From NCBI GenBank assembly GCA_951406725.2, contig OX597814.1, positions 80,104,001 to 80,168,000 of the forward strand: a stretch of DNA of 64,000 nucleotides, in the 5' to 3' direction. The translations under genes and the position numbers were made by a program. Each line of letters starts with the position of its first letter. The stretch's first letter is position 1. Below, piece by piece: positions 8,214-52,000 of this stretch. Origin of the DNA: Octopus vulgaris. Its lineage: Eukaryota. The notes beneath the pieces were generated by a model. That model saw only the letters and a list, made by a program, of their open reading frames with translations. It was not told the origin of the DNA and did no database searches.

Positions 8214-8256
8214 CCACTACAATCGTTTCATGTCTTCAATGACATTCGTCAGGTGG
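8214..8256 (-). ncRNA. Minimal type I hammerhead ribozyme (mirror copy)
   Basis: Exact reverse complement of 8325-8367. Confidence 0.85.
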
Positions 8257-8324
8257 AATTTCGATCTCCTAATCTGTTTTAATTTATTAAGTCATAAATT
8301 AAAACAGATTAGGAGATCGAAATT

Positions 8325-8367
8325 CCACCTGACGAATGTCATTGAAGACATGAAACGATTGTAGTGG
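8325..8367 (+). ncRNA. Minimal type I hammerhead ribozyme
   Basis: ccac-CUGACGA-auguc(auugaa)gacau-GAAAC-gauu-GUA-gugg. The core is complete, stem I has 4 bp, stem II has 5 bp, and the predicted cleavage is after A8363. Confidence 0.85.
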
Positions 8368-8623
8368 CGGTTTATTTCTTTATATTAAAAATTTTTTATG
8401 TATTGATTAAGTCTTTCTTTGTTTGTTTTGCAAAATAGTGGTTTTGTCTCGAATTAATATTATATATATATATATATATATATATATATATATATATATA
8501 TATAGTTATATTTTGGCTGGAAACAATCATCTTATCACTAAATAAAGCATAAAATGACTATATTTTCCGTTGATACGAAAAAATAACATCCTAAAACAAG
8601 CATTATAATAATTATACTGAGCA

Positions 8624-10305
8624 TTATATTTTATGGCTTCTGATGGTATCCTTCGTGACAAAGTGACAGAGAGGATGCAGTCCAACATTGCATCTTACAC
8701 AATAAAATGCAGTTTTTCCAGGACAATGTGCGCATCTTCTTGTGTTGCCCTGTCTCAGCCAGTGGTTTATTCCATCATATTGTACACAGTTGATGAGAGA
8801 AGATGCTTGCCTGCCTTGTTTAGAAGGAGTCTCATACTGTTTCAATATCGAAATGGCTAATTTGCGCCAAAACTGTGGAAGAGACTCCGTGTTATTTCTT
8901 CTTCTTTTCGATAAAATTCTGGAATTCACAACAACAACATCAATGAAATAAATGAAAATTGGCCACCACCACTTCTACCTCATTCATGTACGGTAGGATG
9001 CGACCAATTGGTCCATCAGATCAACAACCCTCATATACAAATTATAATTCTGCACAACAATTGGTTGAGGTATGGCGATATATGACTTTATCTCTGCTGA
9101 ATATCTCTGTGATGTACTGATATTTTATTTCATAACACAGACTGTAGATGTCGATGTAAAATCAGATGACCAGTTGAGTAGTTTTTTGAAAGTTTTTCGT
9201 TTTCCTAGAAGATAATTTAGCAATCTGTTTTCTCTAACAACGCCTGTTTCACAAATTCCTCCTGATGATAGGTGATCTAACAACTTAAAGGAAGTAAAAT
9301 AGTTATCGAAAAGAAGTTTGTAGCCTGCATTAGCTGTCACATATTTTTTTGTATCAGCTTCATTACTACACCACCTCCTATTTGTGCGGGTGTCGTGATT
9401 ACATTTTCCAACATAGACATCGAACGCATACATGTAATCACATGATGAACAAAGAGCCCAATTTTTATATCCGAATTGTATTGCTTTCCCTTTTATATAT
9501 TGCTACGGTGTCTTCCGTAGTATGGGATAATCAATTCGTCAATATATAAATTTTCATCAAGCGGTTTGAGCTGAACAAATTTTGTTGGTAAATGTTGAAG
9601 AAGCGGCTGTAATTTGTAAAGGCGATCTGACCCGTCATTGCGTGTATTGTTATTGAAGTGCAAATGGTGAAGTAATTACTCAAATCTATTGCATCTGATA
9701 TCATCACAAAGAAGTTTTGGGCCATCTTTCTCACGTGACCAATAAAGATTCTTATTGGGGTATTTAGCGTACCCAGACAATAAAAAACTTCAAATGTAAT
9801 ATGAAGTTCATCACTTGTAATATTCAAAGTCTTGCTTTGCTGTAATGCGTATATGTTAGTTTGTTCCACTAAATTATCTGTGAAGGCATTATCAATAAAA
9901 AGTTTGAATATATCTGATTCGCTGCTAGCTGACAATACTTCTGCAGGAATTACGCTGTCTCCAGTTCGTTCGCAATTGATAACGAATGCAGGAACTGTAC
10001 GTGACCATTCAATTGGGTTTGGTCTACTTTTCTTGGCCTTGTTTGATAGTGGAGTAGCTTGTGCTTCGTTAACATCAACAGCTGCAACATTTGAAGGCAT
10101 GTGAGGGATAAAATCACACGTGACTGATTAGGACAGGACCGAGCTTATTGAAATCTCCAGCTGATTCTTTATCTGAAGCATCAGAATCTGCGTCAGTTGC
10201 AGCTATATCGTGTTCATCAGGTATATGAAGAACTATATCACCAGCTTCAATTTCATCATCATCAATATCATCCAATATTTTCAATATTTCTGAGATTTTC
10301 AACCT
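8624..10305 (-). pseudogene. piggyBac-family (PGBD2/PGBD3-like) transposase, frameshifted
   Basis: Collinear motifs across frames: acidic N-terminus (LDDIDDDEIE), FKLFIDN...LVEQTNIYA, IDELIIPYYGRH, GKAIQFGYKNWALC, LFDNYFTS, YNLYMRVVDLMDQ, KWWWPIF, and the C-terminal Cys-rich domain RRCAHC...FYCVRCNVGLHPLC. Confidence 0.92.
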
Positions 10306-10351
10306 GAAAACGAGAAAAACGTTCATATGGGCGGTTGAGTGCATAGCGTCC

Positions 10352-49718: not shown

Positions 49719-49834
49719 TATATATATATACATATATATATATATATATATATATATATATATGCATGTGTGTATGTATATAAATATATATGTATATATG
49801 TATATATATATATATATATATATATATATATATA

Positions 49835-51035
49835 GAAACGAACCCACAACCTGCGAGACCTCTTGACCCACAGCTTCTTCCCTAACCCCACCTCCCAATC
49901 TAGTTCGTTCCCCTGCTCCTGTCCACGCTGACGCACTTGCCCTTACCCCCTCCTCACCAGCACCCATCATCGACCCTATCATATCACCGACTCCTTCACC
50001 TGCTCTTCTACCAATGTCATCTACTGCATCTCCTGCTCTCTCTGCCCTTCTGTATACATCGGGCAAACAGGACGCCGCTTGGCTGACCGTTTCGCAGAAC
50101 ACCTCCGAGACATCTGACTCGGCAATGACACCCCGGTCTCACGCCATTTCCGCTCTACCGGTCACTCTTTGCAACGCCTGTCTTTGTTCCGATTTTCCTT
50201 GCACAGGGGCCATCCGGTCTCACGTCTTCGCCGTGAACAGAGGTTAATCTTCTCTTCACTCTTTTGCTCCATGGGCTCAACTCTCCGCCCCTTTTCCTTT
50301 AAACCACCACCCCTTTTCATTTAAACCTCCTTCCCCCTCCTCTCTTCTCCTCACACCTGCTTCCTCCCCTCTACCTCTCCTCTCTTGCTCCGACTCCTAC
50401 TTCTTCTCTTCACTCCTACACTCCTTCTCTCTTCTCCTCACTCCTACCCACCTTCTCCCTTCATCGTCACCCCTCCCTCGTAACCCCACCCCTACACAAT
50501 CTAATCCTACCTTCCCTATCCAACCGATCACGCACCCACCCCATCCCTTACACCCACTCCCACAGAACCCCAACCTCAGCCTAACCCACACCCACCCTCG
50601 CCTCCTCCACATCCCAACACCACCACACTATACTGATCACTTCCCAGCCCCACACTATCATCCACACACCTACACATGCACACACGCACACGTCAAGGTC
50701 ACCAGCCCTCTTTCTCACGCACATATATGCTCTCTTATACATATGTACGAGCACCTTCTTTTTGGTATCACCTCTACTTTATTATCTCCCCTTCTCCCCA
50801 TCTTCCTGTGTGACTCCTCTGTCCGGCATTTGCCATGATTGATCACTAGCCACTACACATTCTTTATTTTGTCTCCTTGTTTCTTTCTGTGTTCCTTTCT
50901 GTGGAAGAGCGTAGGCTCGAAACGTTAAAGACTTTTTCACTTCCCGAGTTTTAAACTAATACATCTGGTTGTTTTCTACACCACCTGTCTTCGTCTTTTG
51001 TTTTTTTTTTGTGTGTGTGAATTCTTCCCCCCTCC
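49835..51035 (+). mobile_element. Penelope-like element, 5'-truncated: GIY-YIG endonuclease remnant, C-rich 3' UTR and terminal repeat
   Basis: A + frame absent from the ORF track reads [10 protein letters not shown]...PCSCPR*RTCP...[40 protein letters not shown]...VSRHF, then RLRREQRLIF...GLN. Flanked by (TA)n. Confidence 0.92.
50895..50930 (+). ncRNA. Hammerhead-like motif with variant core
   Basis: cuuu-CUGUGGA-A-GAGC(guag)GCUC-GAAAC-GUU-aaag, same family as 11440. Confidence 0.6.
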
Positions 51036-51565
51036 TATTTATATATATATGTATTTATGTGTGTGTGTGTGTGTGTGTGTGTGTGTGTGTGTATGTGTGT
51101 GTGTGTATGTATGTATGTATATATATATATGCATGTATATATATATATGGTGGCTGCCCCTAGTTATCGAGTATGGCCATTGCACGAAGCTTAATCAATG
51201 TTATCGTGTAATGCCTGTGCAAGAAGATTTTTTAAAGTGAGGAAAGGCTGTGCACTGAGTCAATCCCACTCACTAAGCAACAGCAGCCATAATCCGAAAA
51301 GAAGAAGTTACATCGGTAACAACTGAGCGGCAGATTTTATGTCGGAGTTATCCCAGGTACCTGACTTACCTTCTCCTAGAAGGATGCCCTAACAAAGGCT
51401 AGGAGTCCTTCACTCCCAATGATTTAACCGTGCGATCGGGTATTCAGTCCGATTATTTCTACGTCCCCACGCATGATACAGCCTTAAGACATTTATTGGA
51501 TGGCCGTTGACTCTCAAGAGTTCATATATGTATATATATATATATATATATATATATATATATAT

Positions 51566-51902
51566 ATGACTCAGTGGTTAGAGCGTCGAGCTTACGATCG
51601 TGAGGTTGTGAGCTCGAATCCCGGACCGGGCTGCGTGTTGTGTTCTCGAGCAAGGCACTTTATTTCACGTTGCTCCAGTTCACTCAGCTGTAGAAATGAG
51701 TTGCGACGTCACTGGTTCCAAGCTGTATCGACCTTTGTCTTTCCCTTGGATAACACTGGTGGCGTGGAGAGGGGAGGCTGGTATGCATGGGCGACTGCTG
51801 GCCTTCCATAAAAACAACCTTGCCCAGACTTGTATCTAGGAGGGTAACTTTCTAGGTGCAATCCCATGGTCATTCATGACCGAAGGGGGTCTTTACCCTT
51901 TT
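51566..51902 (+). mobile_element. tRNA-derived SINE, group C type, inserted in (TA)n
   Basis: tgactcagtggttagagcg (A box), gctcgaatccc (B box) and gagcaaggcactttatttcacgttgctccagttcactcagctg. Confidence 0.85.
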
Positions 51903-51952
51903 ATATATATATATATATATATATATATATATATATATATATATATATATAG

Positions 51953-52000
51953 GTCTTACAGCTGTTTCCAGGATATTTATTATAACCCTTCATCGGAGAC
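51953..52000 (-). ncRNA. Hammerhead-like motif (C4 variant family)
   Basis: On minus: gucu-CCGAUGA-A-ggguuau(aauaa)auauccu-G-GAAAC-agcu-GUA-agac, directly followed by (TA)n. Confidence 0.6.

Follow-up and report, generated by a model that had tools for sequence, protein, structure and literature searches.

Three families of repeats with hammerhead ribozyme motifs are present in a 64-kb stretch of Octopus vulgaris DNA (contig OX597814.1, positions 80,104,001 to 80,168,000; hereafter the window), and these repeats are very probably pseudo-LTR ends (LTR, long terminal repeat) of Penelope-like retrotransposons (PLEs) carrying minimal hammerheads. At the sequence level this identity is shown for family 2, in which a remnant of a GIY-YIG endonuclease gene adjoins one copy, and it is likely for families 1 and 3; the copies found in the window are likely dead stubs. 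The setting is microsatellite-rich, AT-rich animal DNA, where 68 TA runs in 64 kb are at least five units long. An earlier note on this DNA had listed seven hammerheads in three unrelated families and proposed a diverse, high-copy system of ribozyme-bearing Penelope-like or retrozyme elements that targets AT microsatellites. The features identified are listed in Table 1.

Motifs were searched for in the 64-kb window with a strict type I descriptor (stem I of at least 4 Watson-Crick pairs, a core with at most one substitution, stem II of at least 4 pairs, an exact GAAA and a fully self-complementary stem III), using as null 100 dinucleotide shuffles made either over the whole window or in 500-nt blocks. 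Both this descriptor and a looser one were written after the motifs had been seen, which makes the contrast with the shuffles somewhat generous. Five of the seven motifs were recovered (cores at 8329+, 8252-, 11445+, 50899+ and 51996-), against a shuffle mean of 0.00 for the whole window and 0.01 for the blocks, with a maximum of 1; the motifs are above chance. The looser descriptor gave 6 matches, one of them an extra at 27991-, with a shuffle mean of 0.37 and a maximum of 2, while no further convincing hammerhead family appeared among the best 45 of 111 candidates from a wide-net descriptor. In an Rfam search of the whole window, the 150 matches listed out of 399 were of microsatellite and hairpin microRNA type, below gathering scores, and none of those listed was a hammerhead. 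Pattern scans for family 1 (metagenome and genome contigs), family 3 (genome) and family 2 (viral) were empty, and were uninformative since the collections were mostly microbial.

Hammerhead-like sequence is present at all seven positions, but only five motifs are intact by the descriptor. The family-2 homologue at 10856 has decayed, with a CCAUAGA core (three substitutions) and stem I lost, and the motif at 36451 lacks an A of the GAAA. Nor do the seven correspond to separate events, since those at 8214 and 8325 are arms of one inverted pair with 96.7% identity, which leaves six insertions. The single design attributed to the three families holds for the minimal type I fold and the self-complementary stem III, the latter allowing dimer pairing in all three, but not for the bulge, the 10.1-11.1 pair or the length of stem III, which differ between families. 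Their flanks are indeed unrelated, with no alignment beyond low-complexity matches of 10-15 nt.

The evidence that carries the PLE assignment is in copy C of family 2. As a whole (49835-51039), this copy is a 5'-truncated PLE consisting of the GIY-YIG region, the 3' untranslated region (UTR) and the pseudo-LTR, with (TA)n at both ends; the truncated 5' end of the endonuclease remnant abuts (TA)17 at 49801-49834, and the hammerhead lies around 600 nt after its coding end. The linkage between family 2 and a GIY-YIG remnant was confirmed, at 49836-50300. The Pfam match of the remnant (E 0.0013, 19.4 bits) is under the cut-off of 22.6, and a first search for homologues at near lengths returned none. 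Twelve homologues were then found with E values from 1e-15 to 2e-28 and 38-72% identity, in agreement with tblastn; one of them (P0007) combines reverse transcriptase (RT) and GIY-YIG, and the closest named one is an Octopus bimaculoides gene model, with 72-76% identity over the shared stretch. In the alignment the remnant shows the position of the CX4-x-X2-C linker and the C..C/H/H (CCHH) pattern, and a stop codon falls on the column of the linker's middle Cys. An immunoglobulin-domain gene model of O. bimaculoides (protein P0003) also includes some 75 residues from this family of PLE endonucleases, likely as a mis-annotated exon.

Family 2 hammerheads have a 4-nt ACGU stem III, a bulged A after A9 and a G10.1-C11.1 pair; the GUU site they carry is a usual one in published minimal hammerheads. 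All three copies, which share 75-77% identity (77% between A and C over 10599-10964), have U at core position 6 (A6U) and so depart from the consensus CUGANGA. Stems I to III are kept in copies B and C, the flanks of which are about 23% different. The upstream 323 nt of copy B have no match elsewhere in the window, copies A and C included, and this copy could represent another subfamily, arranged as a partial tandem, or else a unit that is not autonomous. The core starts with CCA in copy A (10856-10862) and with CUG in copies B and C (11445, 50899). CpG decay of an original CCG could account for both, in which case family 2 would share the U4C change of family 3, as judged from three copies only.

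The association was also explored in a set of 58 related PLE loci from metagenomes, 44 of which have at least 400 nt after the endonuclease match. The 58 loci contain 16 hammerhead matches in all, compared with a shuffle mean of 0.9, and in 8 of the 44 a sense hammerhead of the same design is located 108-350 nt downstream of the endonuclease match. The cores of these eight are CUGAAGA (seven) and CUGGGGA (one), with ACGU (seven) or ACAUGU (one) as stem III. Two metagenome contigs hold further PLE-type ends: an overlapping pair of minimal hammerheads on opposite strands (L049:6540-6645), and a minimal hammerhead with a 10-nt palindromic stem III and a GUU site (L048:1110-1160).

Family 1 consists of a single inverted pair, the arms of which match over 8112-8471 and are surrounded by (TA)n at 7977-8037 and 8461-8504. 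Its hammerhead has no bulge after A9, the 10.1-11.1 pair is A-U, and the 8-nt palindrome includes G.U pairing; both arms conform to the consensus core CUGANGA (or UUGANAA) with GAAA, which no other family does, and this is the sole family of the three in which the dimer hammerhead is the cofold minimum (-20.8 kcal/mol). The region 8112-8460 is predicted to form one hairpin of -258 kcal/mol, and a transcript across the pair would bury the ribozyme in it. Only about 45 nt survive upstream of the core. According to the arm alignment, the right arm breaks off within the repeat at a TA-rich place, followed by (TA)n, and the extension present only in the left arm is likely a PLE "tail", judging by this one copy. 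The inverted, tailed arrangement is the one described for PLEs (PMC8557442), and this geometry makes it likely that family 1 is of PLE origin.

For family 3, public contigs from 4 of 24 listed runs were aligned with copy a as reference, three of the runs being of DNA type (organisms A, B and C) and one guessed to be RNA (organism A); the 24 runs are all in contig form, and none is recorded as RNA. The alignment was restricted to this family. Matching contigs numbered 2720, 2775 and 1221 in the DNA-type runs of organisms A, B and C, respectively, and 453 in run X10, the one guessed to be RNA, whose contigs reveal neither strand nor cleavage ends; the counts are a sign of abundance and not of copy number. 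The high copy suggested earlier is thereby backed for family 3, with 1,221-2,775 contigs per DNA-type run. The two copies in the window are 92% identical and share an 8-nt palindrome, an extra G before GAAA and a bulge with G.U or G-C at 10.1-11.1. Copy a has a U4C core, and the A that is missing from its GAAA is present in 17-68% of the depth at that position. Contig pieces reach 36554, so that family sequence continues beyond the motif and copy a ends at (TA)18, while copy b is a shorter end that runs into (TA)25 (51902-51951) only 5 nt beyond its predicted cleavage site. The 5' ends are staggered, with a slow increase in depth starting at 36392 and loose ends that extend further upstream, and the loose-end consensus matches 52062-52092 of copy b. 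Three of the four runs show a depth step near 36500, which may reflect either a frequent short 3' end or a break in the alignment at an indel, and was left out of account.

Variants reaching at least 3% inside the family 3 motif affect three of the five loop-II positions, three CpG positions, a G.U pair in stem II that becomes G-C, and two positions beside the deletion, and the core and stems are nearly without non-CpG variation. No two-sided compensatory change was found in the contigs, where one change is pair-preserving. This variation appears compatible with a conserved fold. The departure from CUGANGA is the rule in this family: C4 accounts for 78-88% of the depth and is present in both window copies, and the canonical U4 for 12-22%. 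Because U4 exceeds G5A at the same CpG (3-6%), and a neighbouring CpG decays evenly (5-10% each way), the data suggest that a canonical-core subfamily exists beside the U4C one. A search for upstream coding sequence in two frames gave no match in one and, in the other, only the low-complexity repeat protein P0016, which was rejected. As with family 1, geometry makes a PLE origin likely for family 3. Directly upstream of copy b lies an imperfect palindrome, 52101-52258, which could be the 5' junction of family 3 in inverted form or else a hairpin inserted there independently; another is found at 33578-33854 (79-80% for both).

With respect to the (TA)n niche, the statement that the repeats terminate at (TA)n is correct for six of the seven hammerhead arms, which have their 3' end at (TA)5 or longer, the exception being the copy at 10856, which is followed by the next family-2 unit. 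A comparison set of 21 other repeat segments, read by eye on either side and including one that shares the run of family 1, had four such cases (Fisher p 0.003, or 0.008 with family 1 counted once). Similarly, five of the six insertions have their predicted cut no more than 130 nt from a run of (TA)5 or longer, when only 8-11% of the positions in the window lie within 100-150 nt upstream of such a run (p about 1e-4, the threshold having been set afterwards; sum-of-logs p 4e-4). Two alternative 3' ends each were found in families 1 and 3. The (TA)n bias of the hammerhead repeats is real, though not exclusive, since two SINE-like repeats (SINE, short interspersed element) and one 856-nt tandem without ribozyme also abut TA. 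The targeting of AT microsatellites proposed earlier is supported as an association, in a niche also used by repeats without hammerheads. The presence of TA at both the 3' end and the truncated 5' end of copy C is more in keeping with (TA)n as a target than as a tail added to the copy.

Table 1. Repeats, hammerheads and coding remnants in the 64-kb window.
Feature	Coordinates	Strand	Description
Family 2 copy A	10350..10975	+	5'-truncated 3' UTR and pseudo-LTR; 5' boundary near 10350 by eye
Family 2 hammerhead A	~10851-10889	+	Decayed; from alignment with copies B and C
Family 2 copy B	10976..11575	+	560-nt unit with 47-nt terminal duplication (10976-11022 = 11536-11582), end in (TA)12
Family 2 hammerhead B	11440..11477	+	Core CUGUUGA (A6U), bulged A, 4-bp stem II, ACGU stem III, GUU site
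GIY-YIG remnant, Neptune type	49836..50300	+	Broken C-terminal endonuclease, two in-frame stops, frame damage near end
Family 2 copy C	50300..51039	+	Pyrimidine-rich 3' UTR and pseudo-LTR, end at (TA)5 (51040-51050)
Family 2 hammerhead C	50895..50930	+	Core CUGUGGA (A6U), GUU site
Family 1 pair	8038..8460	.	One inverted (head-to-head, 5'-truncated) pseudo-LTR-like pair, both 3' ends outward into (TA)n
Family 1 hammerhead, left arm	8214..8256	-	Canonical core CUGACGA, 5-bp stem II, 8-nt self-complementary stem III, GUA site
Family 1 hammerhead, right arm	8325..8367	+	Same sequence as left arm; Rfam Hammerhead_1, 10.8 bits, E 9.9
Left-arm-only extension, ~75 nt	8038..8111	-	From arm alignment
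Family 3 copy a	36389..36559	+	~60 nt upstream, hammerhead 36451-36497, ~62 nt of family 3' sequence, then (TA)18
Family 3 copy b	51952..52100	-	Hammerhead 51953-52000, core CCGAUGA, stem III ACAGCUGU, GUA site
Palindrome, 80%	52101..52258	.	Directly upstream of family 3 copy b
SINE-like repeats	49441-49717, 51568-51901		tRNA-like heads by eye; (TA)n on both sides of each
Young partial tandem	42800-44208	+	561 nt at 99.3%, period ~856-859 nt, end in (TA)14 at 44209
piggyBac-like DDE transposase remnant	8505-10330	-	Broken; Pfam PF13843, E 1.6e-9 and 2.5e-4; between family 1 and family 2 copy A
Non-LTR retrotransposon coding remnants	20865-21847, 29882-32268, 47519-47860	-	Decayed; RVT_1 E 1.2e-4, zf-RVT E 0.005
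Dispersed repeat family, abundant	47919-48290, 55683-56082, 32911-33131, 53586-53760, 57241-57401, 59669-59828, 61271-61725		72-92% identity, tandem or inverted pieces

The insertions show the geometry of endonuclease-bearing (EN+) PLEs, that is, 5' truncation, inverted and partial-tandem copies, an optional tail and an AT-rich target, and the following mechanism can be proposed. The GIY-YIG endonuclease of the element would nick AT-rich or (TA)n DNA (PMC11167929, PMC8557442), and the RT would prime at the nick and start inside the RNA at two or more sites, so that some ends would have a tail of 60-75 nt and others none. Early stops of the RT would usually leave the copies 5'-truncated, a restart on the other strand would yield the inverted pair of family 1, and a partial tandem copy B of family 2. 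The hammerheads, if active, would act as slow dimers through the palindromic stem III (PMC4209133), probably assisted by the protein of the element.

Several results weigh against identifying all these motifs as PLE hammerheads. The linked coding sequence proposed earlier is present at copy C of family 2 but was not found beside families 1 and 3, where tblastn and tblastx with 12 PLE proteins and the 58 loci gave nothing credible. In 36 of the 44 related loci the descriptor has no match downstream, seven of the eight downstream hammerheads come from one related family, and none of these eight loci has (TA)n within 300 nt. Local Rfam scans only returned Hammerhead_1 for family 1 (Table 1) and no match for families 2 and 3. 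Folds of the monomers are no more stable than those of shuffled sequences (z from -1.3 to +0.7), and the dimer hammerhead is far less favourable than an alternative cofold in family 2 (-13.7 and -9.9 versus -26.8 and -20.8) and also less favourable in copy b of family 3 (-16.9 versus -21.9). In addition, U4C and A6U occur in none of the 56 representative minimal hammerheads in Fig. S3 of PMC4209133, whose descriptor would exclude them.

The lack of coding sequence beside families 1 and 3 is also what would be expected if these families and the 560-nt unit B were non-autonomous, retrozyme-like RNAs, cut by the hammerhead, circularised and copied in trans by a PLE protein. Retrozymes are described as deriving from pseudo-LTRs (bioRxiv 10.64898/2026.07.22.740005), and the 47-nt terminal redundancy and internal TA junction of unit B resemble the product of copying once round a circle; the 47-nt repeat could also have arisen as a partial tandem or by duplication of the target. 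The window contains no tandem array of two or more complete hammerhead units, its motifs are minimal while retrozymes are described with the canonical type (PMC7229834), and the staggered 5' ends of family 3 fit 5' truncation, all of which makes this explanation very unlikely. A different question, compatible with PLE identity, is whether the (TA)n association reflects targeting at all, or merely the density of TA runs or their later growth by slippage at AT-rich sites. Besides that density, this idea could draw on the TA-abutting repeats without hammerheads (the two SINE-like ones and the 856-nt tandem), on the fact that (TA)n does not follow the pseudo-LTR in the related metagenome loci, and on the preference of the purified PLE protein for ATT and not specifically (TA)n (PMC11167929). 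Considering that five of six insertions lie near a TA run against the 8-11% of positions expected, and that 17 of the 21 other segments have no TA run at their ends, we regard it as unlikely.

The core changes raise a further alternative, namely that families 2 and 3 are relics whose masters lost catalysis, their stems appearing conserved because copies descend from few masters. U6 in the three family-2 copies and the predominance of C4 in family 3 are in line with this, given that changes at A6 and U4 lower hammerhead activity (PMC3088659), and variation in family 3 is low in the flanks as well (7 of 40 positions, versus 6 of 42 structured ones). On the other hand, stems I to III are intact in copies B and C of family 2 in spite of their divergent flanks, the variation inside the family 3 motif is located in the loop, at CpGs or preserves pairing, and a viroid hammerhead with U4C remains sufficiently active in vivo (PMC3088659). 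A relic origin can be considered, although it is somewhat unlikely. Under the preferred PLE interpretation, the changed core letter likely slows self-cutting in families 2 and 3, and the U4C and A6U cores suggest weak cleavage that the elements do not require in order to spread. The in vitro insertion of hammerhead mutants of the Anolis element would explain how such families could spread. That they spread with all three stems kept because the fold is a scaffold for protein binding or dimerisation, and not a catalyst, is an idea we find quite doubtful; if true, the U4 and C4 subfamilies of family 3 would represent a natural experiment on the purpose of PLE hammerheads.

Among the other repeats of the window, the two SINE-like ones, in which ARAGORN detected no tRNA, might share targeting machinery with the hammerhead elements. 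The 856-nt tandem has a short TA-rich junction between units and PLE-like geometry; it contains no hammerhead by descriptor and no Rfam match, and since its alignment with family 2 is only patchy it was not counted as a member. Complementary segments at 44045-44110 could form a long hairpin or pseudoknot, as seen by eye. The abundant dispersed family in Table 1, likely a SINE or the end of a long interspersed element (LINE), has a 10-bp hairpin that scored in the wide-net descriptor (48084+, 59747+) without a proper GAAA, and its ends do not abut (TA)n.

When compared with known systems, the observation is mostly real and mostly known, each element of the earlier inference being already in print. 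A diverse ribozyme-bearing PLE system is not new, as it corresponds to the published anatomy of PLE pseudo-LTRs (PMC4209133, PMC8557442). Minimal hammerheads have been reported as several heterogeneous families per genome, with thousands of copies, palindromic positions 15-16, opposite-strand pairs 100-700 bp apart and low dimer activity (PMC4209133); PLEs have been described with tails, inverted copies and a bias towards microsatellites in which (TA)n is a preferred target (PMC8557442), and a PLE protein with AT-rich cleavage, internal RT starts and protein-assisted hammerhead activity, the mutants still inserting in vitro (PMC11167929). PLEs are annotated in Octopus vulgaris, with 31 recently active families, in an article whose main text does not contain the word "ribozyme" (PMC13282606), and searches of the hammerhead and Penelope literature returned no report of octopus PLE hammerheads. 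PLE hammerhead variants that cleave as dimers are the subject of Lunse et al., a study that may already include core variants of the U4C and A6U kind.

The motifs of the window resemble the minimal hammerheads of Cervera and De la Pena (2014; PMC4209133) in being type I, with a short stem I, palindromic 15-16 positions, a U-rich 5' flank, GUU or GUA sites and, in families 2 and 3, a bulged base after A9, as well as in occurring mostly as single truncated copies, with opposite-strand pairs, in heterogeneous families. The Saccoglossus (2) and Hydra motifs in Fig. S3 of that work have the same longer palindrome and GUA site as families 1 and 3, and none of the set of 56, as given there, comes from a cephalopod. 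The A10.1-U11.1 pair of family 1 and the extra G before GAAA in family 3 depart from the usual pattern. Animal non-LTR retrozymes (PMC7229834; bioRxiv 10.64898/2026.07.22.740005) are likewise non-coding, of type I, derived from PLE pseudo-LTRs and dispersed as monomers; they are defined by tandem units with complete hammerheads, and by circular RNAs where tested, and with no tandem array of canonical hammerheads in the window the retrozyme label was dropped.

Family 2 in particular matches Neptune or Nematis EN+ PLEs (PMC8557442), which have a C-terminal GIY-YIG with Cys linker and CCHH, followed by the 3' UTR and a pseudo-LTR with hammerhead, and share the 5' truncation, the inverted and partial-tandem copies, the tails and the microsatellite targets. 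The two types are not separable for family 2, the copy being 5'-truncated and its RT gone. The 3' UTR of family 2 is longer than in the related loci (about 600 nt versus 108-350 nt), and the tails are 60-75 nt here versus 30-40 nt in those PLEs. The mechanism, with two internal RT starts that generate the tail, is borrowed from PAc, the Poseidon element of Anolis (Frangieh et al., 2024; PMC11167929), whose open reading frame begins within a hammerhead of canonical core, whereas the ATGs in or beside the cores of families 1 and 3 open short frames only. The motifs of the window extend the known association between PLEs and hammerheads to a cephalopod-like genome. If it is true that core-variant families, which standard descriptors would miss, are catalytically weak and yet successful, they would bear on the unresolved role of PLE hammerheads (PMC8557442; PMC11167929).

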